Shown in pieces: positions 3,417 through 41,749 of a stretch of DNA of 51,047 nt; positions within the stretch are counted from its first letter, which is position 1; each line of letters begins with the position of its first letter. The DNA lies in contig JABGQL010000073.1 in NCBI GenBank assembly GCA_018648825.1, positions 2,118 through 53,164 on the forward strand, in the 5' to 3' direction. The notes beneath the pieces were generated by a model. The model had not been told where the DNA came from and ran no database searches. It saw nothing but the letters and a program-made list of their open reading frames with translations. A program made the position numbers and the translations under genes. The DNA is from Gammaproteobacteria bacterium. Its GTDB lineage: Bacteria > Pseudomonadota > Gammaproteobacteria > GCF-002020875.

Positions 3417-5621
3417 TTACTTGTACTGATCAGGATTAGATTCCGAATGAAATCCACTGCCCATCTCCCACGCCTTACTAGACTTGTCCACTGCAGCATG
3501 AGTGACCTGCTCCAGTCCCAGCTCACGTGCACAGCGCTCTACCTCTAGCACCACCATCCCTTTGACAAAGTCGGGGATCTTCTCCATCCGTGCCTTGGCC
3601 TCTGGCTCCCACTCCATCTGTGACTCTTTCTGGCTGGAACCAGCTGCCCAGTCACTGTATTTCTCTTCAACCAGTGCCTCTGTGATCTCCGTGGTTCCCT
3701 GCTTCTTTGCAAACTGCTCTACCCGTTGGCGGGTTAGGTTGCGCATAAATCCTTCGGGGATGCGTTCCATTCGTGCCTCGGCATCTGCGCTCCACTGAAG
3801 TGTGCTCTTCTGTTGTGCTGCTTTCTCTTTACCCGCTTGGGCTAGGTTGGCGAAGGGACAGAGGCTTGCCTTCTTCTCTTCTGGTTCTGAGGTAAATTCT
3901 GGGGCTGCTGCTTCCGCTTTCATTGCAACCTCCATCGCCTTGCGTGCCTGCTCCAATCCCGATTCAGCCACCTCTAGAGTGACTTCATGGTGGCCGTGCT
4001 CTCGTGCATACGACTCAATACGCTGCTTGCTGGAGTCTCGCATAAACCCTTCAGGAACCCGTGTCAGGCGTGCCAGTGCAGCAGCCCCCCAGCTCAGCTC
4101 ACTCTGCTGATCATTGGCTGGACTAATGCTGGGGGAATCAATAAAGGGCTGAATATGAGAAAGGGTTACACGGTTAGAGCGCTCCCCGCGAGCCCGTTTC
4201 TCTGCACGCATACTCAAGTTACCGCGCAGAGCGAGGTCTTCAACGCCCATCAACAGCTGTGTCGCATCCCTATCCCAGCGCATTACTGCTTCGGTGACCC
4301 GTTTGGCATCTTCTTCGGGGGTACGTTTCAGCTCTCCCGCCTCATAGGCATCGACAATCTCACCCATCGCCTCTTCGGCGTGGCCGGGCATCAACTGCGC
4401 TGTCGCCTCTTCTACAATACGCTCGGTGATCACGGTGTGGCCGCGCTCTTGTGCATAACGCAAGATCGCCATCTTCGCCATGTTGCGAACAAAGGAGGGG
4501 ACCCGCTCCATGCGCTGTTCGGCTTCATGGGTCCAAGAGGTGGTGCTCTCTGCCACCACGTCAATACGGGGCTGGTGGGTGCGTTGGCTCAATAGTACGG
4601 CACACTCTACATTACGCAGTAGTAGCTCACTGTTACCGCCGATATCCAACTCATCATCGGCGTGGATGCCGAGCTTGCCAATCACCAACAGGGAGGGTCG
4701 TGCATTAGCAACATAGCGCTCCACCGCATCATGCGCCTTGCCGTCGAGTAGTTTGCTCTCAATTTCGACACCATACTCCTTGGCTATGGACTCGGCCACA
4801 TCCAGATGTCCTTGGTAGATCTTTGCCAGTCCAGAGTCGATAATCTCTTCGTGGAGCTTCTCCTGCTCTTTGAACTTGAATACCTTGCCCGCCTCTTCAG
4901 AGAGTACTCCTGCAATGCGGTTGAAGGCGACGTAGTGGTAGTAGGGGTCAAAGGCGGAGATCACCTCAACCTTACAGTCCCACTGCTGTGCTAGGGAGAA
5001 TGCGCTGAGTAGGCCGCCATAGGCCCGCTCAGATCCGTCGATTGCGACCACAATGGGGCCTCGGTTGAGCGGTTTCTCTGGCTCTTTGATCACCAGTAGA
5101 TCAATATCGGTACGACGTGCCACGCGGTCGGTAACGGTGCCGAGGCGGCTACCCCGTATCGCCCCCAATCCCAGTGCGCCCATCACCAGTAGATCGTATT
5201 TCCCGCTATTGGTCTCTCGGGTCAGCTCTCGGTAGTTCTTACCCTCTAGGCTGCGGCGCTGGAAGGGGATCTCATTCTCATCGGCGATGCGTTCTGCCTG
5301 ATCGAGATAAGAGTCGGTGATGATCGATAACCCCTTGGTGATGAGGTCATCATGTACGTCACGCTGCCGCTCCAGCTCCTGCTCTTCACGGAACTGCTCT
5401 GGCAGCCCCCCCTCCATTTGGCGGAAGCGGATATCATGCAACTTGGCGGCGTAGACGTGAGTTCCGCTGACCGTAGCAGCATAGTGGGCAGCGATACGAA
5501 ATGCTTCGGTGGTGCCACGGTTGGCATGGTCCGAGGAGTCTACTGCAAGAAGAATGTTCTGGTAGACGGGTAGGGGAGCAGGTTGATCTGCCTCTATGCG
5601 TACGACGTTCTCTTTCTGCAT
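3417..5621 (-). CDS. Tandem universal stress protein (two USP domains) fused to five PCP_red-like repeats
   Basis: ILLAVDSS..DLLVMGALGLG..LGTVTDRVAR and IVVAIDGS..LLVIGKLG..IGGNSELLLR. Repeats start WTHEAEQRM, WDRDATQLL, WGAAALARL, WSADAEARM, WEPEAKARM. Confidence 0.85.
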   Translation of the reverse strand: MQKENVVRIEADQPAPLPVYQNILLAVDSSDHANRGTTEAFRIAAHYAATVSGTHVYAAKLHDIRFRQMEGGLPEQFREEQELERQRDVHDDLITKGLSIITDSYLDQAERIADENEIPFQRRSLEGKNYRELTRETNSGKYDLLVMGALGLGAIRGSRLGTVTDRVARRTDIDLLVIKEPEKPLNRGPIVVAIDGSERAYGGLLSAFSLAQQWDCKVEVISAFDPYYHYVAFNRIAGVLSEEAGKVFKFKEQEKLHEEIIDSGLAKIYQGHLDVAESIAKEYGVEIESKLLDGKAHDAVERYVANARPSLLVIGKLGIHADDELDIGGNSELLLRNVECAVLLSQRTHQPRIDVVAESTTSWTHEAEQRMERVPSFVRNMAKMAILRYAQERGHTVITERIVEEATAQLMPGHAEEAMGEIVDAYEAGELKRTPEEDAKRVTEAVMRWDRDATQLLMGVEDLALRGNLSMRAEKRARGERSNRVTLSHIQPFIDSPSISPANDQQSELSWGAAALARLTRVPEGFMRDSSKQRIESYAREHGHHEVTLEVAESGLEQARKAMEVAMKAEAAAPEFTSEPEEKKASLCPFANLAQAGKEKAAQQKSTLQWSADAEARMERIPEGFMRNLTRQRVEQFAKKQGTTEITEALVEEKYSDWAAGSSQKESQMEWEPEAKARMEKIPDFVKGMVVLEVERCARELGLEQVTHAAVDKSSKAWEMGSGFHSESNPDQYK

Positions 5622-5872: not shown

Positions 5873-6643
5873 TTATTTCATTACGATGTTGACGGCAACG
5901 TTATCCCCACCCTTTACGGTGGCCTTGCCTTTTCCTGGCTTTAGGAAGCCATTAAAGGCACGTACTTTGTACTTGCCTGGAGGTACGTTATTGATGCTGT
6001 AGTTTCCATCTCCATCCACCATAGCGTAGTAGGGGTTTTTGGCAACAAAGACAAAGCCGTGCATAAAGTCATGGGCATCACACTCCACCTTCATCGCATC
6101 GCCCTTCTTCAGCTTGACCTTCTTGGCGACTTTGCTGCCTTGATCGGGCTGGCTGACGTTGGCGACGGTCTTCTTCGGTCCCTTCATGGTGCCAGTCAAC
6201 AGCTCATAGGTGTGGATGTTGTGCAGTACCGGATCAGAGTTGAGTGCGGTCAGCTTACCGCCATTCTGTAGTATGGAGAGGAAGGGGGTGAACTCACACC
6301 CCTGCTGATCGATGGTAGCCTCAGTTGGGGTTTCACCCCACGCTTTACCCTCTTTGACTTTGATTAGGTAGACCACGGTATTGAGCAGCGCCTTGCCATT
6401 GGTCTGCACATAGTCGACCACACGTTCGCCACTGCCGCAGACTTTGTTGTCTTTTTTGATGTTATAGACTTTATGAGCGGATTTTGGCGCCGCTTTCTTT
6501 AGAGTCACTGAGCCACTGATGGTGCCGCCGTTGGCCACATCGACCACTTTATAGCCCGCTTCAACAGCGAGTGGAGCAGCCAGTGTAGCGGTTGCGATTG
6601 CCGCAGCACTCAAGGTGCGACTGAGGTGTTGAATGGTTTTCAT
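5873..6643 (-). CDS. Exported protein with cupredoxin-like type-1 Cu motif and carboxypeptidase-regulatory-like beta-sandwich
   Basis: Sec signal ending VEA; DPVLHNIH ... ECDAHDFM (His...Cys-x2-His-x2-Met); C-terminal DGNYSINNVPPGKYKV; AGGAG RBS. Confidence 0.75.
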   Translation of the reverse strand: MKTIQHLSRTLSAAAIATATLAAPLAVEAGYKVVDVANGGTISGSVTLKKAAPKSAHKVYNIKKDNKVCGSGERVVDYVQTNGKALLNTVVYLIKVKEGKAWGETPTEATIDQQGCEFTPFLSILQNGGKLTALNSDPVLHNIHTYELLTGTMKGPKKTVANVSQPDQGSKVAKKVKLKKGDAMKVECDAHDFMHGFVFVAKNPYYAMVDGDGNYSINNVPPGKYKVRAFNGFLKPGKGKATVKGGDNVAVNIVMK

Positions 6644-6713: not shown

Positions 6714-9227
6714 TTATGCAGCGTGCCGAGAGAGTAGCCGCTGTTCTGGGGCCTGTAGATTTTCATTGGGCTGGTAGATCTCCTCCAGCATCTCGATCAC
6801 AAAGCGGCGTTCAGCACTGCTCTCCATGCTCTCCAGCAGTGGAATTAGGTGTTCACTGCTGACTTCGCTGTCGAGTAGTCGTAGTGCCTGCCCCATGTGG
6901 CGGGCCTGTTCTCCTGCGCCTGCAAAACCGGCATCGAGGATTTTCTGAATCATCGCTGGGCGTTTTTCTGGATCGGTAGAGCCGTGTTGAAGTAGTGTGG
7001 TCACCGCATCGGCAGCATATTTTCGTACTGAGGGCTGTGGATCAGTCAGTGCCTGACTGATCTCTTCCAGTATCTCATTATTGGTAATAGAGTGTGTCAC
7101 CATATGGCCTTCACTGTCAGCATCCAGAGTGCTGGTGGCGACTGAAGCCAGTGCGCGTATTGATTCCATGCGCACAATGGTGTCTTCATCTTCCAGAGTG
7201 TCACGCAGTGCGGGTAGTGCAGCACGGTTCTCCATCTGCCCCAGTGCGCGGATACAGGCCATACGAATATCAGGGTCACCAAAGATCGTTTGTGAGATCA
7301 AGGTGCCTTGCGCCTGTAGTAGTGCTGGATTGGCGGGGTTGTTACTGGCGGCCTCAGTCAATGCATCGGCAGCGAGCCTGCGAACCTCATGATCATCGTC
7401 ATGTAGCGCTTGGTTGAGCGCATCAATGGCAGCATCACTACCGTTACGTCCCAGCATGGTGGTGGCCATGCGGCGTACATCGGTATAGATATCAGCCTTC
7501 TTATAGCGGCGTTCGCGGCGCTGCTGCACCTCCTCATTCTGCTCTAGGATACCGAGGTACTCTTGAGCCTCTTCATCAAGGTCTAGAGTGCTCTCCTCTT
7601 CGGGTTCATCATCCATTAGCATCACCTCGACATTATCCATGGCGATGCTGTCGAGGGTGGAGAAGCTCTCTTTGGGTGTTTCGCTCACCACTGGAGAGGT
7701 GGGGAAGTCTGGCACTGGAATCTCTTTAGCAGGGGTCGCAGTTTCACTGTTGTCACGTGCACTACTGAACTGGACCTCCTGAGCGCCAGCGGGGGGTGCG
7801 TCTGCACCCTCTTCGGTTTCATTTGGCTCATCGCTGTCGGAACTTGTTTTTTCCTGCTTCTCGGCTTCTGTTAGCTCTATTTCGCAATGCAGGGCTGCGA
7901 GGATGACCTCAATCGGGCGCAGTGGCTTTGGCTCCTCTTCGCTGTTGTCATTGGATGCCTCACTCTCTGCACTCTCAGCGACATAACGCTCTTCACTGTC
8001 GAGCAGGGCACTCAGTGCGGCCAGGCGAACCGATTTTTCACCATCACTGAGGGTCTCTGTCAATGCAATGACTGTGGATGGACCGACCTGTTCCATCTTG
8101 CCCAGACTCAATGCTGCCTGACGGCGGATTGCAGGCTCCAGCTCCAGATTCTGAATGAGTTGAACCAACTTCTCCTCTCCATCACGGGTGTTGAGCTTCG
8201 AGAAGAGGCGGGTGGCAGCGGTAGAGGTCTCAATATCAGTATCGCCGATCAGGTTGATGACACGTTCAACTGCATCGTTGTTGTTGGCAATCTTCTCTAG
8301 TATTACATCGTTGTTAAGGTTAGCCAGTGTGTTGAGTGAAGTGGCACGTACCAGCGCACTCTTATCTTCTAACAGTCCAGTAAAGAGATCGACACTCTCT
8401 TGTGTGGGGCGCTCCATCTCACCCAGTGTAGTGGCGGCATGGGTGGCGGCACGTCGAACCTGATCACTGGGGTCTTTGATCAGTAGCATGATGGCAGGTA
8501 GATAGCGCTTGGCATCCTGTTTCTCTAACGCCTCAACCACATGGGTGCGTACATCGGCATGAGGGGATTGCAAGGCACGCCCTAGAATACGGATGGCATC
8601 TGCAGAGTGGGCGCTGCCGAGTGCAGTGGCAGCGCGACGCTGTTTGCGTGGATCGTCAGATTTGAGGATCTGCTCCAGTGCCTCAATGCTCTCTTTACTG
8701 TCAATCTCTGCGAGTGCACGCAGAATGTCAGACTCAATATCTTCACCCTCATCACTGTGTAGGGTCTTAACCAGATTGGGGACAGCGGCTGTGGCCTTGA
8801 GTTGCCCCAGCGACTTAACTGCAGCGAGCTGAACATCCCACCATAGGTCCCAACCATCTTCGATCACATCGATACCTTCGTCTCGATTCTCCAGTACCCG
8901 AATCAGTCCAGGTACGGCATTTAGGTCACCAAGCTCTCCCAAGGCGCGTGCAATGGCGGTTTTTATCTCCCCATCGGGGTCCTTCTCAAGCGACTCCAAT
9001 AGTGAGTCAGTAACCTTATCGCCCCCCAGCTTCCCCAGTGTGGCAGCGGCATCGACACAGACATCAATATCCTTGTCTCGCAGATAAGGGAGTAGTTTGC
9101 TAGAGAGTAGGGTATTTTCTGTCTGATCGGCCAATTTCCCCAGTGCTTGTGAGACATAGCAGCGGTCAGCTTCATCGCCAGTCTCTAGCAGGTGGGTCAG
9201 TGCGTTCAGGGTTTGGGTTCGACTCAT
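6714..9227 (-). CDS. HEAT-repeat (PBS-lyase-like) protein with acidic central linker
   Basis: Many L-x-D-x-D-x-x-V-R-x-x-A-x-x-A-L repeats; D/E-rich low-complexity middle region. Confidence 0.85.
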   Translation of the reverse strand: MSRTQTLNALTHLLETGDEADRCYVSQALGKLADQTENTLLSSKLLPYLRDKDIDVCVDAAATLGKLGGDKVTDSLLESLEKDPDGEIKTAIARALGELGDLNAVPGLIRVLENRDEGIDVIEDGWDLWWDVQLAAVKSLGQLKATAAVPNLVKTLHSDEGEDIESDILRALAEIDSKESIEALEQILKSDDPRKQRRAATALGSAHSADAIRILGRALQSPHADVRTHVVEALEKQDAKRYLPAIMLLIKDPSDQVRRAATHAATTLGEMERPTQESVDLFTGLLEDKSALVRATSLNTLANLNNDVILEKIANNNDAVERVINLIGDTDIETSTAATRLFSKLNTRDGEEKLVQLIQNLELEPAIRRQAALSLGKMEQVGPSTVIALTETLSDGEKSVRLAALSALLDSEERYVAESAESEASNDNSEEEPKPLRPIEVILAALHCEIELTEAEKQEKTSSDSDEPNETEEGADAPPAGAQEVQFSSARDNSETATPAKEIPVPDFPTSPVVSETPKESFSTLDSIAMDNVEVMLMDDEPEEESTLDLDEEAQEYLGILEQNEEVQQRRERRYKKADIYTDVRRMATTMLGRNGSDAAIDALNQALHDDDHEVRRLAADALTEAASNNPANPALLQAQGTLISQTIFGDPDIRMACIRALGQMENRAALPALRDTLEDEDTIVRMESIRALASVATSTLDADSEGHMVTHSITNNEILEEISQALTDPQPSVRKYAADAVTTLLQHGSTDPEKRPAMIQKILDAGFAGAGEQARHMGQALRLLDSEVSSEHLIPLLESMESSAERRFVIEMLEEIYQPNENLQAPEQRLLSRHAA

Positions 9228-9418: not shown

Positions 9419-9488
9419 TGAATGAATCGTTCATTTTATGAATAAAACAGATCGGAATGGTGTTTTTTACAGGTGAATGATTCGTTCA
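9419..9488. promoter_or_regulatory. Pair of palindromic putative enhancer (UAS) sites
   Basis: TGAATGAATCGTTCA (9419-9433) and TGAATGATTCGTTCA (9474-9488), 14/15 identical, centres 55 bp apart, between two divergent sigma-54 promoters. Confidence 0.65.
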
Positions 9489-9511: not shown

Positions 9512-9524
9512 TATCAATGTGTTG
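9512..9524 (+). promoter_or_regulatory. IHF binding site
   Basis: TATCAATGTGTTG is a perfect WATCAANNNNTTR, located between the palindromes and the -24 element. Confidence 0.7.
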
Positions 9525-9542
9525 TCAGTTATTTCTCTCTGC

Positions 9543-9558
9543 TGGCATAGAAAATGCT
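9543..9558 (+). promoter_or_regulatory. Sigma-54 promoter of the cytochrome bd-like operon
   Basis: TGGCATAGAAAATGCT (GG-N10-GC), 40 bp upstream of the first ORF. Confidence 0.8.
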
Positions 9559-9597
9559 CTGCCTGTAAAACCAAGAAAATCAATTGAGGTGCGGATT

Positions 9598-9801
9598 GTG
9601 AGTAAACCATCGGAGTATAGCGAGGATCGTGGCGTAGCAGAGGCGCCGAATAAGCCTCCTCAGAGTGAGCCGCAGAGAGAATCGCATAGAGAGCAAGAGG
9701 TCAGTTGGGGCCCTAAGGTTTTCTTCGCCACGTCGGCTGGTCTGATGCTTTTTTTCTGGTGGTTTTTGATCTATTCAGGTGGCGTAGTACTGCACCACTG
9801 A
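9598..9801 (+). CDS. Small membrane protein, 67 aa, one C-terminal TM helix
   Basis: GAGG RBS then GTG at 9598; hydrophilic N-terminus, then VFFATSAGLMLFFWWFLIYSGGVVLHH. Confidence 0.65.
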   Translation: MSKPSEYSEDRGVAEAPNKPPQSEPQRESHREQEVSWGPKVFFATSAGLMLFFWWFLIYSGGVVLHH

Positions 9802-9845: not shown

Positions 9846-9971
9846 ATGAAGACGGGAATGATATTTGTGGGTGCACTGCTGGTTGCCTTTTTGATGTTCT
9901 ACACCATGGATCATCTGGTGATGGGAATGCAGGGGCTGCCCCTTAATCTTGATTTGACGCCAGCACAGTAG
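9846..9971 (+). CDS. Small single-pass membrane protein, 41 aa (below ORF-track cutoff); candidate accessory subunit
   Basis: AGGAG RBS at 9836-9840; MKTGMIFVGALLVAFLMFYTMDHLVMGMQGLPLNLDLTPAQ; stops 10 nt before the bd-like gene. Confidence 0.7.
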   Translation: MKTGMIFVGALLVAFLMFYTMDHLVMGMQGLPLNLDLTPAQ

Positions 9972-9981
9972 GGAGCGCGCA

Positions 9982-11799
9982 ATGAAACCACTGACATACC
10001 GTACTTTGCTCCTCTGGGTTGTAGCCGTTGCCATCTTCTCGGTAGGCTATTTAGGGGGCGATCTTGGTGGTGACTCGATCTGGAATAGTGCCTCCGCCAT
10101 GGAGCGACTGGTCGAGGGTGAAGAGATTGCACTGAAGCCCGCACCGCAGCCTACCCGTGGTGACTACCCTAATATTGGTGTCAGTAGTCGTGCTGTCGTC
10201 TGGGTGGTTGCGCAGATGCACCTCTTTTTTGGTGCGCTGGTGCTGGCTGTGCCGATGTTTGTGGTCGGTATCGAGATCATGGGGCTGAAGACAGGTGATG
10301 ATCGCTATGACGACATGGCTCATGAGTTTATGAAGATCAGCCTCACCGCCTACTCCATTACCGCCCTGTTTGGCGGCACACTGGCGATCGCACTGTTCTT
10401 GCTGTATCCCACCTTTATGGATTACATGATGGGGGTGTTCGGGGCGCAGATGCTGGTCTATGCGGTGCTCTTCTTTCTGGAGACCTTCTTCCTCTACACC
10501 TACTACTACGGTTGGGATGCGCTGCGTTACGGCAACAAAAAGTGGCTCCATCTCTCATTGGGGTTGATGCTGAATGGCGCGGGTCTGACGCTGATGTTTG
10601 TCTCTAACTCCTGGGCCACCTTTATGATGGCCCCCTCTGGGATCACCGATGTGGGTGCGGTCGTGGGGAATATCTGGGAGATCATGAAGGGGCCGCTCTG
10701 GAATCCGGTCAACCTACACCGTTTTATCGCCAATATCGCCTTTGGTGGTGCGGTGGTCGGCGCTTATGCGGGGTTCAAGTTTCTGGCAGCGCGTACCCCT
10801 GCAGAGAAGGCGCACTATGACTGGATGGGGTACACCTCCAACTTTATCGCCATCTTCGCCTTCCTGCCGTTGCCCTTTGCGGGCTATTGGTTGATGGCTG
10901 AGGTCTACGCCTACTCTCAACAGATGGGGATTACCGCCATGGGAGGTATCCTCGCTTGGCTCTTTATCGTACAGGCGGTGTTGATCGGCACCATTTTACT
11001 GGCAGCAAACTACTACCTCTGGTCGGGGATGTCGCGTACCGAGGGCTCCAAACGCTATCAAGGCTTTATCAAGTGGATTGCATTGACCATAGTGCTCTGC
11101 TTCCTGATCTGGATGACCCCACATACTCTGCTGTTGAGCGCGAGTGAGATTGCGGCTCTGGGTGGAAGCCATCACCATATTTTGGGGCCACTGGGGATCA
11201 TGCCGGCCAAAAATATCGCCGTGAACCTGATGTTGATCATGACCTTCCTTTCGTTTCAGCTCTACCGCCGCTCGGATAAAGAGGCGACGGTCTCCTGGGC
11301 CTCGATGGGTAACGCACTGTTGGTTGCCATCTATATCGCGGCCATTGTCAATATCATCTTTGCTGGGGTCTACTACGGCTACTTCACCAACACCGTCTAC
11401 AAAGTGGGTTCCAGTGTGACTCAGGTGGTCTCAACCCTGATTGTGATTATCTCTGGGGTGATCATTGACGGCATGATGTATAAGAATGCCAAGGTCAAAT
11501 ACCCTGCGGTCTGGGGGCGGGTTACCAACCGCTCGCAGTATGCACTGTTTGCCTTGCCGGTCGCCTTCACTTGGCTGATGGGGTTGATGGGGTATGTGCG
11601 CTCCTCGGTGAAGACCCACTGGCATATCTATACGGTGATGAAAGATAACTCCCCAGATAACTATATTCCGGCGATTGGCTATGCGGGCAATATGGTAACG
11701 CTGGTTACGGTGCTGTTCTTGATCTTCGTGCTGTTTGTCTTCTGGGTTGCCAACCTCAGCCAGCAGAAGCAGGTCAAACCGCAGGAGGCAGAGGCATGA
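9982..11799 (+). CDS. Cytochrome bd-like oxidoreductase subunit I (Nitrospira-type, non-canonical CydA homolog)
   Basis: Polytopic membrane protein; AQMHLFF (H19-equivalent), FFLETFF (E107-equivalent), WNPVNLHRF (H186-equivalent), DWMGY..LPLPFAGYWL..QQMGITAMGG. No Q-loop motif; GRQPW replaced by VKTHW. Confidence 0.8.
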   Translation: MKPLTYRTLLLWVVAVAIFSVGYLGGDLGGDSIWNSASAMERLVEGEEIALKPAPQPTRGDYPNIGVSSRAVVWVVAQMHLFFGALVLAVPMFVVGIEIMGLKTGDDRYDDMAHEFMKISLTAYSITALFGGTLAIALFLLYPTFMDYMMGVFGAQMLVYAVLFFLETFFLYTYYYGWDALRYGNKKWLHLSLGLMLNGAGLTLMFVSNSWATFMMAPSGITDVGAVVGNIWEIMKGPLWNPVNLHRFIANIAFGGAVVGAYAGFKFLAARTPAEKAHYDWMGYTSNFIAIFAFLPLPFAGYWLMAEVYAYSQQMGITAMGGILAWLFIVQAVLIGTILLAANYYLWSGMSRTEGSKRYQGFIKWIALTIVLCFLIWMTPHTLLLSASEIAALGGSHHHILGPLGIMPAKNIAVNLMLIMTFLSFQLYRRSDKEATVSWASMGNALLVAIYIAAIVNIIFAGVYYGYFTNTVYKVGSSVTQVVSTLIVIISGVIIDGMMYKNAKVKYPAVWGRVTNRSQYALFALPVAFTWLMGLMGYVRSSVKTHWHIYTVMKDNSPDNYIPAIGYAGNMVTLVTVLFLIFVLFVFWVANLSQQKQVKPQEAEA

Positions 11800-12629
11800 T
11801 GGAGCGCAATCGACAACGCGGCAATGTGCTGCTCTCTACGCTGGGGTTTAGCTTGGGGTTGATTCTACTCTTTACCATGGTCGCCAATATCCTGCCTCAG
11901 GTTGAGGGTGAGGCCCCAGTAGATAGTGAGGTCGATTTGGGGGCGCTTACCATGGATAGTTTTGTCTCCTTGGGGGAGGAGCTGTTCAGAGGGAAGGGGA
12001 CCTGCACCCTCTGTCATAACAATTTGGGGCGCGCCCCTGACATCTTAGTGATGAATATGGTGGATACCTCCAGTGAGCGCTTGAGTGATACGCGCTATCA
12101 GGGGGGAGCGGCCGATGTAGAGGCGTATCTGCGTGAATCGATGATCGATCCGAGTGGTTATGTGGTGGCCTCTTTTGGTAAGAAGGGAAGTGACGATACA
12201 GAGTCCCCGATGCCAACGGTCAACAAGGCACCACTGAACCTTTCGGATATCGAGATAGATGCCATTATCGCCTTTATGCAGTCGAAGGATGGCGGTGAGG
12301 TGACAGTAGCGTTGCCAACGGAGGCACCAGCCGTAGCAGAAGAGAGTGCAGCAGGTGGCGGTGCAGCTCCAGCCGAGAGTGGTGAGGCGGCTATTGCCAA
12401 GTATGGTTGCAGTGCTTGTCATCTGATCAGTGGATCGGGTGGTGATCTGGGGCCTGACTTGAGTGGCATCGCTGCTCGACTGGATGCACAACAGCTGCAG
12501 CAGGCGATTACAGAGCCCAATGCGGTGATTGCCGAAGGCTTTGCTGTAGGGCTGATGCCCACCGATTTTGCAAATAAGATGACCGTCAGCGAGTTGAAGA
12601 TGGTGGTCGATCTACTGTTGAAGCAGTAG
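11796..12629 (+). CDS. Membrane-anchored diheme cytochrome c
   Basis: N-terminal TM helix; CTLCH and CSACH, each with a downstream MP axial-ligand motif; overlaps the upstream stop. Confidence 0.9.
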   Translation: MMERNRQRGNVLLSTLGFSLGLILLFTMVANILPQVEGEAPVDSEVDLGALTMDSFVSLGEELFRGKGTCTLCHNNLGRAPDILVMNMVDTSSERLSDTRYQGGAADVEAYLRESMIDPSGYVVASFGKKGSDDTESPMPTVNKAPLNLSDIEIDAIIAFMQSKDGGEVTVALPTEAPAVAEESAAGGGAAPAESGEAAIAKYGCSACHLISGSGGDLGPDLSGIAARLDAQQLQQAITEPNAVIAEGFAVGLMPTDFANKMTVSELKMVVDLLLKQ

Positions 12630-12663
12630 TCCACGGAATTATGGGATTGGGAGTAGTGTTGCG

Positions 12664-15105
12664 ATGAGACGATTGGGCATAGCGCCGTTTTGGCAGGCTG
12701 TTCTGGTAGTGGTTGCGGCCTACCTGTTTTTTACCAACGCCTTTCCCCCATTGATGCCGCTCTCACTGGTGATTCAATTTATGTTGATCACCGTGGTTGG
12801 GGTGCTGCTCTACTACTCTTTTGATGATGAGCGCTGGGCTGAATTTCTCTCACCGATACAAAATGTACTGCGTGGCGGTGGTTTCCGCTTGACCTTGACC
12901 CGCTGGTTTTTCCTGCTGGCTATCCCCGCTTTGGTTGGGCAGACCACCTTCAACTTAGTGAAGCCGTCACTCGACTCTCCGGTTGAGTTGCGTCAAGTCC
13001 ACCCAGCGCCCCCCTCCAGTGTGAAGCTTTGGGGCAAGAGTTTTGATCTCAATAGCCTAGAGAGCCCTGTTCGAAACGAGGTGCTGAAGCAGTGGAAGGC
13101 GGGTGAGAAAGAGTCTGCAATGGCGCTCTATAGTGAGGCGGTCGACAGTGGGCGTGATGTCTACTATGGCAACTGTTTCTTCTGCCATGGAGATCTGCTG
13201 GATGGCAAAGGGCACTACGCCGAGGGGTTTAATCCGCAGCCGATCAACTTCCAAGACCCCACCGTAATCCCGCAGCAGCAAGAGGCATTTCTCTTCTGGC
13301 GTGCAGCTACGGGCGGCCCCGGTCTGCCCAAAGAGGGTACGCCGTGGAACTCTGCAATGCCGGTTTGGCATGAGATGTTGGATGAGGATGAGATCTGGAA
13401 TGTATTGATGTTTATCTTTGACTACAACGGTCAGGTCCCCAGAATCTGGAATCTACAGGATTCTGAAGCAGCAACAGCGATGCGTGATCTGATTCAGCGT
13501 GAGCGTAAAGGGGTAAAAGGGGATGCGCTCTATCAGCACCGTTGCGCCGTCTGTCATGGTGAAGAGGGGGCGGGGGATGGTGTCGCCGCTGAGCTGATGT
13601 ACCCCAAACCCCGTGACTTCACACTGGCCCTGTTCAAGTACAAGAGCTCTCCCGGTATGGTATTGCCGCGTGATGAGGATCTATTCCGTACCATTGAGCA
13701 GGGGTTGGATGGTACCGGTATGCCGGGTTGGGGGACTTTGCTGAGTGATGAGCAGATCAGCAGCCTGATTCCGGTGATTAAATCCTTCGATGTGGCAGCA
13801 TCTTGGCCGCCAGAAGAGGCTGAGGAGGAGGACTATGACGAGGATAGCGGACGTTATCTGAAGCAGGACTTCCAAGTGATCACCGAGCGTGAGCCGGAGC
13901 AGGGGCAGCAGCCCTATACACCGGAATCTATTGCCCAAGGTAAGGTCGCCTTTGATAAGTCCTGTACCGAATGTCATGGTGATACTGGGCGAGGCAACAT
14001 CCTCTCGGGCAAGCAGTTGGCGGATGACTGGGGTAACCGTATCTGGCCGCGTGATCTGACCAAGCCCTGGACCTGGCGTGCCACCAATGTCACTACAGGA
14101 GAGACCCCTGAAGTGAGTCGTCAGCAGACGGTACGTAATATCTATACCCGCCTCTCTATCGGTATTCCCGGCACCCCAATGCCGGCTCACCGTGCGACAG
14201 AGGAGGGGAACAAAGATCCGGTCCCACTGGAAGATCGTTGGCATATTGCCAACTACGTCTACAGTCTGCGTGAGACCACCCCCCCAATCGGTGACAGCAA
14301 TATGATTCGAGCCACTAAGCTGGCTGGGGTGTTGCCCGATTCGGTGGAAGATGAGCAGTGGGGTAATGCGGAGGCTACCTCCTTGATGTTGGTCCCTAAC
14401 ATCATCAAGGAGGAGCGTCTCTTTACTCCGCTCAATGATGCCATCACAGTGCGTGCACTCTACAACAGCAAAGAGATTGCACTACTGCTGGAGATTGATG
14501 ACCGTACCGACAGCCGTCCGGGGGAGGAGGTCTCAGTAGGCATTCAGGATGAGAATCTGGAGCTCTTCTCTGATGCGGTTGCGGTACAGTTCCCCAAAGA
14601 GAAAGCCTACGAGAGTAAGCCGGTGGTGGTGAAACCGCTTTACCGTCATGGAGATAAAGCTCACCACACCACCATGTGGTACTGGAATGCAGGGAGTGTA
14701 GAGCCTGCACGGCCGGGTCAGGCAATGCTCTTGGATGCCTCAGGCCCCGATAAGAAGATTGAGCCACGTAGGGGCGATGATTCACTGCAGGCCAAGGGGA
14801 TATGGAAAAATGGTCGCTGGCAGATCCTGATGAAGCGCCCCCGTAATGGTGGGGGCAGGGATGGAAAAACGGGTGACCTCAACTTTATTGAGGGGCAGTT
14901 CCTGCCTATTTCATTCGCCAACTGGGATGGTAGCAATGGTGAAAAGGGGGCGAAGCATACATTGACCAGCTGGGGCTGGTTGGTACTACCACCAGAGGTT
15001 GATGAGCAGCGCCTTTATGCTGTCCCGGGTGGTGTCGCGCTGTTTGTCTTCCTTATGGGCTTGTTGCTGGTGAGAAAGCAGCGCATGTATCGAAAACAGT
15101 ATTAG
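12664..15105 (+). CDS. Membrane-bound triheme cytochrome c fused to an EbdC/NxrC-like (DOMON-type) heme-b domain
   Basis: N-terminal TMs; CFFCH, CAVCH, CTECH; C-terminal VRALYN..FSDAVAVQFP..WKNGRW..ISFANWDGSNGEKGAK; final TM anchor. Confidence 0.85.
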   Translation: MRRLGIAPFWQAVLVVVAAYLFFTNAFPPLMPLSLVIQFMLITVVGVLLYYSFDDERWAEFLSPIQNVLRGGGFRLTLTRWFFLLAIPALVGQTTFNLVKPSLDSPVELRQVHPAPPSSVKLWGKSFDLNSLESPVRNEVLKQWKAGEKESAMALYSEAVDSGRDVYYGNCFFCHGDLLDGKGHYAEGFNPQPINFQDPTVIPQQQEAFLFWRAATGGPGLPKEGTPWNSAMPVWHEMLDEDEIWNVLMFIFDYNGQVPRIWNLQDSEAATAMRDLIQRERKGVKGDALYQHRCAVCHGEEGAGDGVAAELMYPKPRDFTLALFKYKSSPGMVLPRDEDLFRTIEQGLDGTGMPGWGTLLSDEQISSLIPVIKSFDVAASWPPEEAEEEDYDEDSGRYLKQDFQVITEREPEQGQQPYTPESIAQGKVAFDKSCTECHGDTGRGNILSGKQLADDWGNRIWPRDLTKPWTWRATNVTTGETPEVSRQQTVRNIYTRLSIGIPGTPMPAHRATEEGNKDPVPLEDRWHIANYVYSLRETTPPIGDSNMIRATKLAGVLPDSVEDEQWGNAEATSLMLVPNIIKEERLFTPLNDAITVRALYNSKEIALLLEIDDRTDSRPGEEVSVGIQDENLELFSDAVAVQFPKEKAYESKPVVVKPLYRHGDKAHHTTMWYWNAGSVEPARPGQAMLLDASGPDKKIEPRRGDDSLQAKGIWKNGRWQILMKRPRNGGGRDGKTGDLNFIEGQFLPISFANWDGSNGEKGAKHTLTSWGWLVLPPEVDEQRLYAVPGGVALFVFLMGLLLVRKQRMYRKQY

Positions 15106-16279: not shown

Positions 16280-18259
16280 ATGCCCTCTTCGATTGCCTCC
16301 CACAAAAAGCCATTACTATCAAAAAAACAACTACTTGCGGCTGGCCTATTTGCCCTTCTGGCACTCTATCTAGCACTTATTGTCCCCACCATTGAGGTTG
16401 CATGGGTTAGCACTATTCTGGTGCTGACCATCTACCTGTTTGCGTTTGAAGTGGTCTCTGTGGATGTGGCTGCGATTACGGTGATGGTGCTGTTGGGGCT
16501 CACCACGCTGCTCGCTCCAATGATGGGGCTGGAGGCTGGGCTGGTTGATAACCGTCAGTTATTCAATGGCTTCTCCTCCAATGCGGTGATCTCCATTATT
16601 GCCGTGATGATCATTGGCGCGGGACTAGACCGTACCGGTATGATGAGTCGAGTGGCGACACTGATTCTCAACGTGGGAGGCACCACAGAGAAACGTATCA
16701 TCCCCATCATCTCCTCTACCGTTGGTTTTATCTCCTCCTTTATGCAGAACGTGGGCGCAGCTGCGCTGTTTTTGCCCGTGGTATCCCGTATCTCTGCCCG
16801 TTCAGGATTGCCGATGTCGCGGCTGTTGATGCCGATGGGCTTTACCGCGATTTTAGGCGGGACCATGACCATGGTCGGGTCCAGCCCCTTGATTCTGTTG
16901 AATGATCTGATTCTGGCCTCCAATCAGGCGCTTCCAGAGACACAGCAGATGGAGACTTGGGGGCTGTTCTCCGTTACTCCGGTGGGTGTTGCGCTGGTAT
17001 TGACCGGAATCGCCTACTTCATGGTTGCGGGTCGTTTTGTATTGCCAACCCATAGTGGAGAGGATGCCACGGTGAAGGGCGTTGATTCAATGCACTACTT
17101 TCATGAGGTCTATGGCGTTGACTATGGTATTCATGAGCTGGTGGTGGTTGATCAGAGCACCTTGGTTGGTAAACAGTTTGATGAAGTAGAGAATCGCTAT
17201 AGTGTGCGTATTATTGCAACCAAGTTGCCTGGAGAGGCACCTCGTGTAGGGCCGGGTGCATTGGCGCGTGATGTCGATATTCAGGCCGGTATGGTGCTGG
17301 GAGTGGTGGCAGAGCCTGCTCATCTGGAGCAATTTGTCTCCACCTTCCAGCTCAAGCAGCGCGATATGATGCGCACCTTCACCGAAGACCTCTCTCCGAA
17401 TAAATCGGGTATTGCAGAGGTGGTGATTCCTCCTCGTTCTGCGTTGATTGGTAAGAGTGCACGTGATCTCTGGATGCGTAAAATCTATGGTTTGGCGATG
17501 GTGGGGCTGCACCGTAATGGTGAAACTTTGCGAGAAGGGGATGATGTACGTAACCAGCCACTGATGGCAGGGGATACGTTGATGGTTCACACCTCATGGC
17601 GAGATCTTGAGCGTATCGAGAAGGATCGTGACTTTGTGGTGGTGACTACGGAGTTTCCACGTGAAGAGGAGATGCGTCCCCATAAAATTCTGCCAGCGGC
17701 CATTTTCTTCGGCATTGCACTGTTTATGGTGCTGTTTACCGATATTCGCCTCTCGGTAGCGTTGTTAACTGGAGCCATGGGGATGGTGCTGAGTGGGGTC
17801 TTGAGTATTGATGAGGCCTATGAGGCCGTGAGCTGGAAAACGGTCTTTCTGCTCGCCTCATTGATTCCTCTGGGGCTGGCGGTGGAGACCAGTGGTACCG
17901 CACGCTGGATTGCAGAGCAGGTGCTGGAGGTGGTTGGTGCTCAGCCGCTTTGGGTGATTCAGACTGCGATTGCGATATTGGCTACCTTCTTTACACTGGT
18001 GATGTCGAATGTGGGGGCAACGGTACTGCTGGTCCCCTTGGCGGTCAATATCGCAATTGGTGCGGGGGGTGACCCTGCTGTTTTTGCACTGACAGTGGCG
18101 ATCGCAACCTCCAACTCCTTCCTGATTCCGACGCATCAGGTGAATGCGCTGATTATGGGGCCTGCAGGATATCGCGTGGCTGACTTTATCCGCGCAGGCG
18201 GGGTGATGACGGTGCTGTTTATTGTGGTGCAGATTACTGCAATGAGCCTCTTCTTTTGA
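16280..18259 (+). CDS. SLC13/CitMHS-type anion permease with two TrkA-C (RCK_C) domains
   Basis: FMQNVGAAALFLP, GGTMTMVGSSP, central soluble VV..S.L.GK repeats, VMSNVGA, SNSFLIPTHQVNALIMGPAGY. Confidence 0.9.
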   Translation: MPSSIASHKKPLLSKKQLLAAGLFALLALYLALIVPTIEVAWVSTILVLTIYLFAFEVVSVDVAAITVMVLLGLTTLLAPMMGLEAGLVDNRQLFNGFSSNAVISIIAVMIIGAGLDRTGMMSRVATLILNVGGTTEKRIIPIISSTVGFISSFMQNVGAAALFLPVVSRISARSGLPMSRLLMPMGFTAILGGTMTMVGSSPLILLNDLILASNQALPETQQMETWGLFSVTPVGVALVLTGIAYFMVAGRFVLPTHSGEDATVKGVDSMHYFHEVYGVDYGIHELVVVDQSTLVGKQFDEVENRYSVRIIATKLPGEAPRVGPGALARDVDIQAGMVLGVVAEPAHLEQFVSTFQLKQRDMMRTFTEDLSPNKSGIAEVVIPPRSALIGKSARDLWMRKIYGLAMVGLHRNGETLREGDDVRNQPLMAGDTLMVHTSWRDLERIEKDRDFVVVTTEFPREEEMRPHKILPAAIFFGIALFMVLFTDIRLSVALLTGAMGMVLSGVLSIDEAYEAVSWKTVFLLASLIPLGLAVETSGTARWIAEQVLEVVGAQPLWVIQTAIAILATFFTLVMSNVGATVLLVPLAVNIAIGAGGDPAVFALTVAIATSNSFLIPTHQVNALIMGPAGYRVADFIRAGGVMTVLFIVVQITAMSLFF

Positions 18260-18285: not shown

Positions 18286-18353
18286 AGAACGAATTGTTCA
18301 ATCGTTCTCAAGTAATCCTAAGGGGGTATAGGAGAAAGTGAACAAAATGTTCA
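18286..18353. promoter_or_regulatory. Pair of putative enhancer palindromes upstream of the idr operon
   Basis: AGAACGAATTGTTCA (18286-18300) and TGAACAAAATGTTCA (18339-18353), centres 53 bp apart; same pattern as 9419-9488. Confidence 0.6.
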
Positions 18354-18455: not shown

Positions 18456-18547
18456 GTCAATACCTGCGGTTTTTTCTATCAGATGACATTCATGCCATCT
18501 GGTAGGCCAATTGAATGATTTGTCCAACCATACAATGGAGAAACAAT

Positions 18548-19687
18548 ATGGGAGAACGACGAACAATAGTTCGAGGAGCAGTTGCAACTGCAGTTGCACT
18601 GGGCTTGAGTGTCGGTGTGTCTACATCGGTAACTGCGGGGTCACACGGCCCGGTAGCGAAGATTGATGTGAATGCTGCGAAAGCAGAGCTTGGAAAACGA
18701 CTTTTCTTTGATCGCCGCCTGTCAGGTGATGCTGGTATTTCCTGTTCAGACTGTCACAGTCCAGATCATGGCTACGGCAGTAAGGAGGCCCTCTCTCCGG
18801 GATATCCAGGTAATGGACATTTCCGTAATGCGCCATCGCTGTTGAACACCGCGCACAAGAAGACTTGGATGCATGATGGTCGTCTCGGAACCAATTTGAA
18901 TGATGTGACTCGTGAGATGCTCACTGAGGACTACATCATGAATATGGATATGCGGATGATGCAGGAGCGCGTTAAGCAGGACTCTGAGTATCTGGCGCTC
19001 TATAAGGCTGCAGGGATGAATGAGCCTTCCAATGGCAATATTCGCAAGTTGTTGCCAGAGTATATGAAGACCCTAACCACCCGCAATGCGCCAGTAGACA
19101 GTGGCACCATGAGTGCTGCAGCACAGCGTGGCGAAGCGATTTTTGATGGTAAAGGCAACTGTAATAGCTGCCATACCGGAGCGCTCTACTCTGATGGCAA
19201 GCGCCACAACACGGGTGTTCCTGAGAATCTGGATGTGTTCATGGACCCTATGAACCATCAGGCCTATCTCGCCTATGGTATCGGTATGGGGGTAGAGAAT
19301 ATCTTCAACACCAAACGTGATATCGGTGCAGCGGTTCAGAGCCATGAAGCTGATGGTTCAGATATCGGCACCTTTATGACTCCACAGCTACGTGGCCTCA
19401 AGTATAGCGCCCCTTACATGCATAACGGCATGATGGCGACACTGGCTGATGTGGTTGATTTCTACAATCAGGGCGGTGGGGCAGATAGCCACAAGAGTGC
19501 AATGCTGAAGCCACTGCGTTTGACCGATGGTGAGAAGGGCGATCTGGTTGCATACCTAGAGGCACTTTCTGGTGATGCACTAACCGGTTCTGAGTTTGTC
19601 TGGAGTAAGCCATACCCTGCTGAGTATGAGGTGATTCCAAACTGGACTCAGGTGGATAACCGCACCCGTGCGCCAATCAAGAAATAA
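18548..19687 (+). CDS. idrP2: Diheme cytochrome c peroxidase-family protein, iodate reductase-associated
   Basis: GGAG RBS before ATG 18548; signal peptide; LGKRLFFD, CSDCH, CNSCH, TPQLR..APYMHNG. P1/P2 numbering assigned from gene order only. Confidence 0.8.
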   Translation: MGERRTIVRGAVATAVALGLSVGVSTSVTAGSHGPVAKIDVNAAKAELGKRLFFDRRLSGDAGISCSDCHSPDHGYGSKEALSPGYPGNGHFRNAPSLLNTAHKKTWMHDGRLGTNLNDVTREMLTEDYIMNMDMRMMQERVKQDSEYLALYKAAGMNEPSNGNIRKLLPEYMKTLTTRNAPVDSGTMSAAAQRGEAIFDGKGNCNSCHTGALYSDGKRHNTGVPENLDVFMDPMNHQAYLAYGIGMGVENIFNTKRDIGAAVQSHEADGSDIGTFMTPQLRGLKYSAPYMHNGMMATLADVVDFYNQGGGADSHKSAMLKPLRLTDGEKGDLVAYLEALSGDALTGSEFVWSKPYPAEYEVIPNWTQVDNRTRAPIKK

Positions 19688-19705
19688 GCGATCAGGAGAT
19701 TGAAT

Positions 19706-20965
19706 ATGTTTGAAAAGAGAAAGACAAACCCAATCGCCGTTGCGGTCGCATTGGGCGCCACATTGATGGCAGGTTGCACCTCAGCAACCACATCCGTCTC
19801 TACCACTCCGGCCGCTACTGCGGCACCGGTGCAGGTGGCGATGAATGGAACCCCGACGATGGCTTCAGGAGTTGTTGCTGCGGGTGGTGAAAATAATCCG
19901 CCTCTGGCAGCGTTGGGTCCTGTGCCGGTACCTCCAGATAACCCCCAGAGTGCAGCCAAGGTTGAGTTGGGCAAGATGTTGTTCTTCGAGCCAGCGGTCG
20001 GTGGTGATACCTCCACGCCTTGTTCTGCCTGTCATGACCCAGATCAGGGTTGGGGCTGGGCAGAGGATATCTCTCGTGGATATCCAGGCACCGTTCACTG
20101 GCGTAACAGCCAGACTGTGGTGAACTCTGCCTACTATCCTCGTCTGTTCTGGGCCTCCTCGGTCTCTTCACTAGAGGCGCAGGCCAAGTCTGCTGCAGGT
20201 GGTGCGGTTGCAGGTAATGCCGAGTTTGATATCGTTGAGGCGCGTCTGGCACTGATGCCAGAGTATCGTCAGCGTTTCAACGAAGTATTTGGTGATGAGT
20301 TCCCGCTCTACCGCAACGCCTTCCGTGCGATTGCGGCCTTTGAGCGTGCCGAGCTGGTACAGCGTGATGCACCGATTGATAACTACTTCAATGGTGACAA
20401 GAGCGCGTTGAGCGAAGAGCAGCTGCGCGGTATGGCGCTGTTTAACGGCAAGGCCAACTGTATTGAGTGTCACAACGGCCCAATGGCAACCGACTTCAGC
20501 TACTACAACATTGGTGTACCTACGCTGGAACGCTGGAAGGAGGATGGTCTGGCACAGATCACCTATCGCTATGAGATGTATGCGAAGGGTTCAAACGAAG
20601 AGATGTACAAGAACTACAAGGATGATCCAGGTTTCTACTTCCGTGACAAAAACAGCTGGAACAAGGGTAAATTCCGTACGCCGTCTCTGCGTTACACCGC
20701 ATATTCTGCGCCCTATATGCATAACGGCACCCTCAATTCGCTGGAAGAGGTCATTGACTTCTACAATGCGGGTGGTGGACACAATATGTTCTCCAAGAAC
20801 AAGTCCAAGCTGATTAAACCGCTGGGTCTGAATGATGCCGAGAAGGAAGATCTGTTGGCATTCCTCGAGGCCTTCTCGGGTGAAGAGATCGCAATTGATC
20901 GTCCTAAGATGCCTGACTATGCACCTCTGTTTACCAAGGCAGAGCTGATGATGGAGAAGAAATAA
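19706..20965 (+). CDS. idrP1: Diheme cytochrome c peroxidase-family lipoprotein, iodate reductase-associated
   Basis: AGGAG RBS; lipobox LMAGC; LGKMLFFE, CSACH, CIECH, FRTPSLR..APYMHNG; adjacent to the Rieske gene. Confidence 0.8.
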   Translation: MFEKRKTNPIAVAVALGATLMAGCTSATTSVSTTPAATAAPVQVAMNGTPTMASGVVAAGGENNPPLAALGPVPVPPDNPQSAAKVELGKMLFFEPAVGGDTSTPCSACHDPDQGWGWAEDISRGYPGTVHWRNSQTVVNSAYYPRLFWASSVSSLEAQAKSAAGGAVAGNAEFDIVEARLALMPEYRQRFNEVFGDEFPLYRNAFRAIAAFERAELVQRDAPIDNYFNGDKSALSEEQLRGMALFNGKANCIECHNGPMATDFSYYNIGVPTLERWKEDGLAQITYRYEMYAKGSNEEMYKNYKDDPGFYFRDKNSWNKGKFRTPSLRYTAYSAPYMHNGTLNSLEEVIDFYNAGGGHNMFSKNKSKLIKPLGLNDAEKEDLLAFLEAFSGEEIAIDRPKMPDYAPLFTKAELMMEKK

Positions 20966-21576
20966 TGAGTGAATCAGTAACTATCGGTAAAAAGAGCCGA
21001 GAGGACCAGACCGCAGGAGAGCACGGCAAGTGCATGCTCAACCGTCGTCAGTTCTTGATGTACAGTGGTGCAACGGCAGCAACGGCCAGCACCGTATCTC
21101 TTACTCTGTTCCCAGGTACTGCCAAGGCAGCACAGGCCAAGGCACGTGTGGTTGGTTATCCACGTAAGCTGGTGGGCAAGTTGAGTGAGATGAAGGATAA
21201 CGTCCCTGCGGTCATCAACTACCCAGATGATGGCAAGAACTCCATGGCGACCATGGTCAAGACTGGTGTCAAGTGTGGCGGCGGTGTCGGAGCGCAGCGT
21301 GATCTGGTTGCCTTCAGTGCGCTTTGTACACATCAGGGCGGCCCGCTATTGGGTCGTTACAGAGTGGTGGATGAGCACCGGATCATGGGCTCTTGCCCAC
21401 TCCACCTCTCCACCTACGACGTAACCCGTCATGGAATCATCATCTCTGGTCAGGCTTATGAGAGTCTGCCGCAGGTCCTGTTGGAGCTGGATGGAGACGA
21501 TATCTATGCAGTAGGGATGATGGGATTGATCTACGGCCGTAACCAGAACCTCATGTCTGATACGACGGAATCTTAA
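20965..21576 (+). CDS. idrB: Tat-exported Rieske [2Fe-2S] small subunit (AioB-like)
   Basis: Tat motif NRRQFL; CTH ... CPLH ligands; C-terminal LPQVLLE..IYAVGMMGLIYGR typical of AioB/IdrB. Confidence 0.88.
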   Translation: MSESVTIGKKSREDQTAGEHGKCMLNRRQFLMYSGATAATASTVSLTLFPGTAKAAQAKARVVGYPRKLVGKLSEMKDNVPAVINYPDDGKNSMATMVKTGVKCGGGVGAQRDLVAFSALCTHQGGPLLGRYRVVDEHRIMGSCPLHLSTYDVTRHGIIISGQAYESLPQVLLELDGDDIYAVGMMGLIYGRNQNLMSDTTES

Positions 21577-21589
21577 GGAGAATTAAAGA

Positions 21590-32174: not shown

Positions 32175-32190
32175 TCGCTGCCTTTGAGAG

Positions 32191-32204
32191 TTGACCTCTC
32201 TCAA
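32191..32204. promoter_or_regulatory. FNR-like box upstream of ubiUVT
   Basis: TTGACCTCTCTCAA, 8/10 to TTGAT-N4-ATCAA, 60 bp before ubiU; ubiUV are FNR-controlled in E. coli. Confidence 0.6.
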
Positions 32205-32264
32205 TTAAAATACCGCTACTTATTGATATAGTTACCGCTTCTTTCTAGTAAACGCAGGTGTGTG

Positions 32265-33263: not shown

Positions 33264-33271
33264 CGGAGTTG

Positions 33272-34180: not shown

Positions 34181-34199
34181 AAACTGAGAAGAGTAGAAA

Positions 34200-41400: not shown

Positions 41401-41749
41401 GCTGGATAGTGAGGGGCGTGAAAAATATAGGCACCTAGAGGCGATGGGTATCCTAGATCGAGTACATGAGAAACTGCATCGGGTGATTCGGGATATTATC
41501 CACAGTAAGAACAGCGGGGAGACGGACAAGGTGGAGCAGTTGTATGGAGAGATTGACCCCATCTCCAAAGAGGTGCTACTTCAACTGGACAAGATTGAGG
41601 CGGCCTCTCACAGACCTGCGCAGCAATCGAACAAGCGTCCTGTTGCAGCAGTAGAAAAAGTGCGGGCTGTGGCAAAGAGTGTGCAGAAAACGCCAGTTCA
41701 GAGAAAGGCAGCTCCGGTAGCTGGTGACTCGGAGTGGTCAGAATTTTAA
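38441..41749 (+). CDS. Methyl-accepting chemotaxis protein: NIT domain with inserted helical domain, poly-HAMP, signalling domain, CZB, pentapeptide
   Basis: [10 protein letters not shown] and KERAGQERG; MCP hairpin tip; [20 protein letters not shown]; terminal EWSEF. Confidence 0.92.

Follow-up and report, generated by a model that had tools for sequence, protein, structure and literature searches.

An OR-N1/N2-type cytochrome bd-like module beside predicted iodate-reductase genes in a gammaproteobacterium

What can a cytochrome bd-like protein do once its quinol site and its CydB partner are lost, and which enzyme does it serve? The question is raised by a 51,047-nucleotide stretch of a gammaproteobacterial genome (GenBank assembly GCA_018648825.1, contig JABGQL010000073.1, positions 2,118 to 53,164 of the forward strand), called here the window, in which the initial annotation had recognized a CydA-like enzyme wired to c-type haems. 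The analysis gives good support to the placement of this protein in the OR-N1/N2 branch of the cytochrome bd superfamily. Its module is found beside predicted iodate-reductase (idr) genes in many marine bacteria, with a palindrome shared by both gene sets here and mostly in close kin, and the neighbouring Idr system is the likely partner of the complex. The module reads as follows:

9517..9801, + strand: mini-subunit 1, with a single predicted membrane helix (tblastn conservation)
9846..9971, + strand: mini-subunit 2, 41 aa, with a single predicted membrane helix (tblastn conservation)
9982..11799, + strand: OR-N-type cytochrome bd-like subunit, 605 aa (open reading frame, PF01654, AlphaFold, profile alignment)
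11796..12629, + strand: membrane-anchored dihaem cytochrome c, 277 aa (open reading frame, two CxxCH)
12664..15105, + strand: membrane-anchored trihaem cytochrome c fused to an EB_dh (EbdC/NxrC-like) domain, 813 aa

The three larger reading frames lie exactly where the initial annotation had placed them; the two mini-subunits, the replacements of E99 by Tyr160 and of E74 by Ala135, the divergent maturation operon and the idr cluster come in addition to it. As judged from sequence conservation, the unit comprises five genes, since the two small upstream frames are conserved: mini-subunit 1 is matched in 46 and mini-subunit 2 in 40 of 80 loci (tblastn, E<=0.05). These are the best 80 loci of 413 relatives found, a set biased to close kin; they come from 79 distinct genomes, several genus relatives are among them, and the counts overlap. 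The conservation of mini-subunit 1 is confined to its last ~35 aa, and its true start probably lies downstream of 9517.

The model that we prefer, tentatively and at rather less than an even chance, describes the complex as an O2 reductase fed by cytochrome c or cupredoxin, an oxygen sink serving the predicted Idr island. It would take its electrons from periplasmic carriers, not from quinol, and would reduce O2 at very low concentration. The blue-copper protein or soluble cytochromes would deliver the electrons to the EbdC-like haem b, from which five His/Met c-haems would carry them to a remodelled site on H80 and H246; there, instead of E99 and E445, Y160 and H381/H398/H548 may provide a tyrosine together with ligands for copper or for an additional haem. 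The mini-subunits and the anchor helices of the cytochromes would cover the face that CydB normally occupies, haem and assembly factors would come from the divergent operon, and all three operons would answer to a single activating regulator. We infer these functional steps from the gene set, the predicted CydA fold, the loss of the quinol site, the residue pattern, the idr linkage and the palindrome.

Three arguments favour O2 reduction. The protein retains the haem core of CydA. Among Nitrospirales, three cultivated members have the OR-N types as their only oxygen reductases (PMC12342949), and CydAA', which lacks CydB, still reduces O2 (bioRxiv 10.1101/2021.01.16.426971). Finally, the invariant His/Tyr set and the SCO1 and PCuAC neighbours (in 5/80 and 3/80 loci) could rebuild an O2 site; one Nitrospira bd-like oxidase has been suggested to hold putative copper sites (PMC6606698). 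As to the substrate, H2O2 and O2 are released in one model of Idr (PMC8692401).

Fold, residues and family of the bd-like subunit

The bd-like gene gives the only PF01654 match of the host genome (2.65 Mb, 88.5% complete), and this domain spans just residues 69-323 of the 605-aa protein. As the initial annotation had claimed for the operon, there is no subunit II: CydB (PF02322) has 0 matches both in the operon and in the 88.5%-complete genome. AlphaFold, run with an 86-sequence alignment, predicts 14 long helices (pLDDT 84). Compared with whole CydA chains, the model reaches VIA Z scores of 31-34 over ~350 residues at 3.1-3.8 Å and so retains the nine-helix CydA core, the next-best fold being ActC, the membrane subunit of alternative complex III (Z 18.9); in a Foldseek search, canonical bd oxidases alone appear at E<=0.001. 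Residues ~320-510 resemble only generic bundles and, in the predicted model, extra helices of this region occupy the place of the Q-loop. Identity to canonical CydA amounts to 21-25% and concerns the N-terminal part only. When plasmids were searched with the protein, nothing matched.

Residue equivalences were obtained by profile alignment (hhalign) to 12 canonical CydA, with a probability of 98% for the His19/N-terminal test. Retained are R9 (R70), H19 (H80), E107 (E167), H126 (H190), H186 (H246) and W451 (W547), while R448 is replaced by K544; all seven positions vary little or not at all among 86 family members, H80 being invariant in 86/86 of them and in 119/119 near homologues. The retention of His19 and His186 and the absence of the Q-loop, both noted from the sequence at the outset, are thereby confirmed, the quinol-site residues Lys252 and Glu257 being without equivalent. 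E74 has become A135 and E99 has become Y160. In canonical CydA, functional roles are also assigned to H186, M393 and E445; M393 and E445 were left unaligned (probabilities 35% and 13%, the E445 C-terminal probability being given as 35%). Ungapped counting back from W547 probably puts S541 at the E445 position, in agreement with the change that had been read by eye in this region. For the roles of H19, E99/E107 and K252/E257 we follow Murali et al. (bioRxiv 10.1101/2021.01.16.426971).

Y160, S541, H381, H398 and H548 are invariant in the 86 aligned members and the 119 near homologues, and among 29 distant representatives they are found in 26, 22, 21, 23 and 23, respectively. This conservation indicates that the changes are family-wide and under selection, and are not the result of decay. 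H278, M533 and M536 are invariant as well; of the extra invariant His, three lie on the periplasm side. A new bis-His haem on the cytoplasm side, formed by H190 and H278, was considered and dropped, H190 corresponding to H126, which is invariant in canonical CydA.

Could the remodelled site serve another substrate? It might reduce H2O2, hypoiodous acid or NO and thereby guard the membrane during Idr turnover, H2O2 and HIO being generated by Idr in the published scheme. The Tyr at the E99 position, kept in 119/119 near homologues, and the presence of the module in anaerobes are consistent with this proposal. The cluster already has two peroxidases, though, and direct evidence for H2O2, HIO or NO is lacking, so that we regard it as improbable.

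Trees were built by a quick method and by FastTree, and the support values are those of the methods themselves. FastTree separates the protein from the 12 canonical CydA (support 100) and groups it, again with a support of 100, with HDK38353, HEC05340, RLJ20881 and WP_081417741 (P0094, P0112, P0287 and P0338 in our set), the first two of which are 78% identical to it. Next to this clade come contigs of Nitrospinota, assigned to OR-N1/N2 by Kop et al. (PMC10839748) in a tree based on Murali's alignment. The labels of their Fig. S5, used here as a list of labels only, include these four proteins and the contigs of nine of our loci (L035, L040, L047, L048, L053, L056, L073, L078 and L079). Aestuariirhabdus litorea is likewise among the tips of the OR-N tree. 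The protein thus falls in the OR-N1/N2 clade and not with the canonical quinol-oxidising CydA.

The OR-N group has been defined by the loss of the quinol site, OR-N1 and OR-N2 have 14 helices, OR-N2 is commonly alone in its operon, and alternative, non-quinol electron donors have been proposed for the group (Murali, Gennis and Hemp; bioRxiv 10.1101/2021.01.16.426971). The protein of the window has neither Lys252/Glu257 nor a Q-loop, keeps His19 and the first four helices, and has 14 predicted helices. It differs from OR-C by the absence of CxxCH from subunit I (0) and by these 14 helices instead of eight, and from the quinol oxidases (qOR1-3) by the missing quinol site, the broken E99/E107 pair, the absence of the GRQPW motif and the absence of any CydB found; the early description of a non-canonical, cytochrome c-linked member of the superfamily therefore stands. 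It is likely an OR-N2, as suggested by the lone cydA-like gene of the operon, and no OR-N1 partner gene is found in this genome. The NIDE0901-like subunit is also an OR-N2 (PMC12342949), and the related literature includes PMC8387239 and PMC9040806. The presence of such an enzyme in a gammaproteobacterium, which the initial annotation had inferred, is real. It is not surprising, the family and its gammaproteobacterial members being already published and the latter being tips of the OR-N tree.

Cytochrome partners and the divergent operon

The bd-like, dihaem and trihaem proteins contain 0 + 2 + 3 CxxCH motifs, which gives the five c-haem sites announced by the initial annotation, and the dihaem and trihaem partners recur in 78/80 and 74/80 loci. 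In the dihaem cytochrome, both motifs and the likely distal ligands M139 and M254 are invariant (63/63); for each of the five c-haems there is an invariant Met that could well serve as its distal ligand. The middle dihaem part of the trihaem fusion resembles PDB 6h5l_B (E 1e-64), which we take to be Kustc0457. Its C-terminal end, with the EB_dh domain at residues 588-764, resembles EbdC and NxrC, and the EbdC residues M108 and K201, presumably its haem b ligands, align with H662 and H765. At these positions, 25/25 fused forms carry His/His and the 31 split forms mostly Met/His; the split arrangement, with two genes instead of the fusion, is that of most loci of Nitrospinota and of alpha- and deltaproteobacteria. 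H662 and H765 are thus predicted to bind a haem b, which would be the sixth periplasmic haem.

In 13 alphaproteobacterial loci (L046, L050, L054, L058-L064, L067, L068 and L071), two bd-like modules are found in tandem. The upstream paralogue is ~44% identical and ~700 aa long, and its EB_dh ligand positions carry Arg/Met in place of His/His, hinting at two complexes of different potentials.

With its haem b domain, its c-haems and its membrane helix, the fusion has the make-up of an alternative NxrC. The NxrC-like domain that had been annotated is present; it gives no pointer to nitrite oxidation, as no NxrA/NarG type occurs among the five PF00384 genes of the incomplete genome (two NapA, NuoG, one IdrA-type and one unassigned PhsA-like). 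The nearest described arrangements are Kuenenia kustd1706-1713 and the Nitrospira bd-like_3 and alt_NxrC_2 genes, which, compared by annotation only, have the order bd-like, dihaem, monohaem, dihaem, with Usp and cupredoxin-like genes close by (PMC6423088, PMC6606698, PMC3578206). In contrast to them, the monohaem and dihaem/EB_dh genes are fused in the window, the haem b ligands are predicted to be His/His, and no NxrAB is found in the genome.

The genes that run divergently from the module are:

6714..9227, - strand: HEAT-repeat protein (divergent operon)
5873..6643, - strand: exported predicted blue-copper protein (divergent operon)
3417..5621, - strand: Usp protein with PCP_red repeats (divergent operon)
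1383..3407, - strand: radical SAM/SPASM protein with PCP_red repeats (NirJ2 and AhbD models, both below cut-off)
1..1386, - strand: flavin amine-oxidase-family protein, read as HemY-like, running off the window

The HEAT, copper, Usp and radical SAM genes recur in 22, 32, 25 and 28 of the 80 loci. The blue-copper protein has no sequence match in the PDB; its H141, C188, H191 and M194 are invariant (30/30), a set that we take to be the type-1 copper pattern. The amine-oxidase assignment comes from PF01593, seen in the homologue L063:18513-19973. The HEAT gene adjoins the bd-like module and also idr clusters devoid of it, as observed in three module-less genomes (L090:4626-6986, L091:4804-7056 and L092:5268-7397), and its product may for this reason be an assembly factor of Idr. 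Between 1383 and 5621, the PCP_red repeats, otherwise the C-terminal domain of the BchB subunit of DPOR, are fused to radical SAM haem-synthase-like and Usp proteins.

The neighbouring idr cluster

The idrP2P1BA cluster lies 3.4 kb downstream of the module:

9419..9488: palindrome TGAAY-N5-RTTCA, two copies (9419 and 9474), between the divergent operons
16280..18259, + strand: anion permease of the SLC13/CitMHS type, carrying TrkA-C domains
18339..18353: palindrome, third copy, which precedes idrP2 by 176 bp
18515..20965, + strand: two dihaem cytochrome c peroxidase-like genes of idrP type (P2 and P1 labelled by position)
20965..24283, + strand: Rieske subunit and AioA-like molybdoenzyme (idrB and idrA type)

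These genes are predicted to be of the iodate-reductase type. Clusters of this type are defined by AioAB-like genes syntenic with two dihaem peroxidases (PMC8692401); this synteny is found in the window and in 15/17 idrA regions, the other two being incomplete. The described idrABP1P2 islands share the AioA-like molybdenum enzyme, the Rieske protein and the two adjoining peroxidases, but lack, in the text consulted, a bd-like complex; the window adds the module and the HEAT, cupredoxin and haem genes.

The IdrA-type protein scores over the cut-off of the arsenite oxidase large subunit, which raises the question of direction. IdrAB might instead run as an oxidase on iodide, hypoiodite, arsenite or some other high-potential donor; its electrons would pass through the Rieske protein, the cupredoxin and the cytochromes to the bd-like complex and O2. 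Elsewhere the family accompanies the oxidation of high-potential donors (nitrite, Mn(II)), and in alpha- and deltaproteobacteria and Nitrospinota the gene order, cupredoxin or idrP2P1BA-HEAT-cupredoxin-bd-like, would suit such a chain. The small driving force from iodide to O2 speaks against it. So do the characterised idrABP1P2 clusters, which all reduce iodate in the literature examined, and the peroxidase pair, which is the mark of Idr and not of Aio (PMC8692401). We consider this scheme very improbable. The same very low probability is given to its extended form, in which the whole island would be an oxidative chain from reduced iodine (or another high-potential donor), with the blue-copper protein and a six-haem wire leading to a bd-fold enzyme whose haem-copper-tyrosine O2 site (H381/H398/H548 and Y160) would be convergent. 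Should this form be true, iodate would have biological makers among marine sulfur-oxidising autotrophs, and OR-N would be the first copper-using bd-fold oxidase.

An IdrA-type gene (at least 53% identity) is present in 47/79 module genomes (26/40 + 22/40, one shared). In a background sample of 400 genomes of the phylum, IdrA-type genes (at least 48%) occur in 7, the bd-like gene in 9 and both in 2, two weaker IdrA matches (31-35%) being excluded as probable Aio; the Fisher p of 0.009 is overstated, kin not being independent. Of 14 genus relatives, nine carry the bd-like gene together with idrA, and the other five carry neither. The idr genes lie within 10 kb of the module in 13 loci and on the same contig just past the flank in 7 more, and idrA is followed by a bd-like paralogue in four further genomes.

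Is the link functional at all? The module could be an independent low-oxygen respiratory unit that has no more in common with idr than its island and a low-oxygen regulator. The module and idr are each found without the other, the neighbours in betaproteobacterial loci from soil and groundwater are other multihaem proteins, and kin weigh on the counts. The adjacency nevertheless recurs, with differing gene orders, in five groups (gamma-, zeta-, alpha- and deltaproteobacteria and Nitrospinota), and the HEAT and cupredoxin genes are interleaved with both module and idr; we give little credit to a mere cohabitation.

The palindrome TGAAY-N5-RTTCA, a motif derived from this window, occurs three times in the window and 30 times in the genome. 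In relatives, it is found upstream of the bd-like gene in 10/75 loci and of idrP2 in 7/13, and elsewhere 7 times in 1.14 Mb; its carriers are mostly close kin, L005, L006 and L016 being more distant.

RNA-library contigs (4 runs, 3 studies) cover the module in part and the SLC13-idr stretch almost wholly. Their depth is 0-26 over the module, where they are more broken, versus ~35-240 over SLC13-idr; this would argue against one-to-one co-expression, but contig depth cannot rank genes and DNA carry-over is possible. Contigs of several runs start near 16255, a weak hint of a separate transcript. The SLC13-type permease, which could be an oxyanion transporter, is not conserved in the 80 related loci and is inserted before idrP2.

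Other neighbourhoods also occur. Upstream of the bd-like gene, the idr genes are replaced in seven loci (L015, L017-L019, L023, L024 and L026) by other multihaem cytochromes, by a BTAD/PAS regulator and by a monohaem protein of ~400 aa that has no Pfam match, a set that may point to another partner enzyme. A Porin_5 porin-like gene precedes the cupredoxin/idr genes in L028 (15727-16917), L114, L115 and L119. Near its idr cluster, the window also encodes a pair of chemoreceptors (24429-27392 and 38441-41749) having domains of the NIT (nitrate/nitrite) and CZB types. The bd-like gene of one genus relative (G413:C20:6979-8678) gives two separate matches, which a frameshift or an error of assembly might explain.

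The idr-linked island, the His/His haem b fusion, the mini-subunits and the shared palindrome may be new: they were not found in the literature searched, and among the papers listed no main text joins idr genes with the bd-like module, supplements and closed journals, which may bear on this, lying outside the scope. In Nitrospira and Nitrospina, the terminal oxidases are presumed to be OR-N proteins, which also occur in the nxr cluster of anammox bacteria. Linked to idr and not to nxr, the module in several phyla offers a second context, with nitrite removed, in which to ask for substrate and direction. It also suggests that Idr has a membrane partner; the supply of electrons to Idr exists in the published accounts as a model only.

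Oxygen sink or electron conduit

Several points weigh against the oxygen sink. The PDB and fold matches listed include no OR-N structure, and the literature examined reports no OR-N activity. Equivalents are missing for E74 and E99, and probably also for E445 and M393, and the canonical proton and O2 channels follow the CydA/CydB interface (PMC9846854). The host, which also has dsrA, RuBisCO and two NapA, already possesses a cbb3 oxidase. No chlorite dismutase match is found in the 88.5%-complete genome, and O2 release by that route is thus unsupported. The link with idr is not obligate: IdrA is absent from 32/79 module genomes, and 5/7 IdrA genomes of the phylum sample have no bd-like module. 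Finally, the same gene order is found in the nxr cluster of the anaerobic Kuenenia, where kustd1712 decreases 5.2-fold and nxrA 9.3-fold when nitrite oxidation stops (PMC6423088); this joint fall fits a conduit better than an oxidase.

Such a conduit would oxidise quinol at a new site and feed IdrAB and the peroxidases through the c-haems, the haem b and the blue-copper protein. It accounts well for the Kuenenia co-regulation with NXR and for the remodelled O2 site, explains better than an oxidase the redundancy with cbb3, and agrees with the ActC fold match. A role of this kind, in reverse for NXR, has been proposed for Nitrospina, Nitrospira and anammox bacteria (PMC3578206, PMC6606698). The His/His pair of the 25 fused forms would also lower the potential of haem b, if the ligand roles that we ascribe to EbdC hold. 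Yet no quinol-site residue is recognisable in the profile alignment, idrABP1P2 alone increased iodate reduction in E. coli (PMC13455634), those five IdrA genomes manage without the module, and 21 of the 32 IdrA-less module genomes also lack a type II DMSO-reductase match (E<=1e-60; incomplete metagenome-assembled genomes, matches unclassified). We hold the conduit to be possible and somewhat unlikely, and keep the oxygen sink as the tentative preference.

The closest relatives of the host are labelled Thiotrichales/Piscirickettsiaceae, an 85%-identical protein is labelled Ca. Thiopontia autotrophica, and DNA of the window is found in seawater metagenomes. Elsewhere in the window (30921-34709), ubiM stands beside ubiUVT, which associates aerobic and O2-independent ubiquinone synthesis. 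In locus L087 (G000:C16:21000-40500), three more haem-copper-family genes are present: one, beside a monohaem cytochrome, is read as NOR-like, and a divergent subunit of 579 aa adjoins a haem o synthase.

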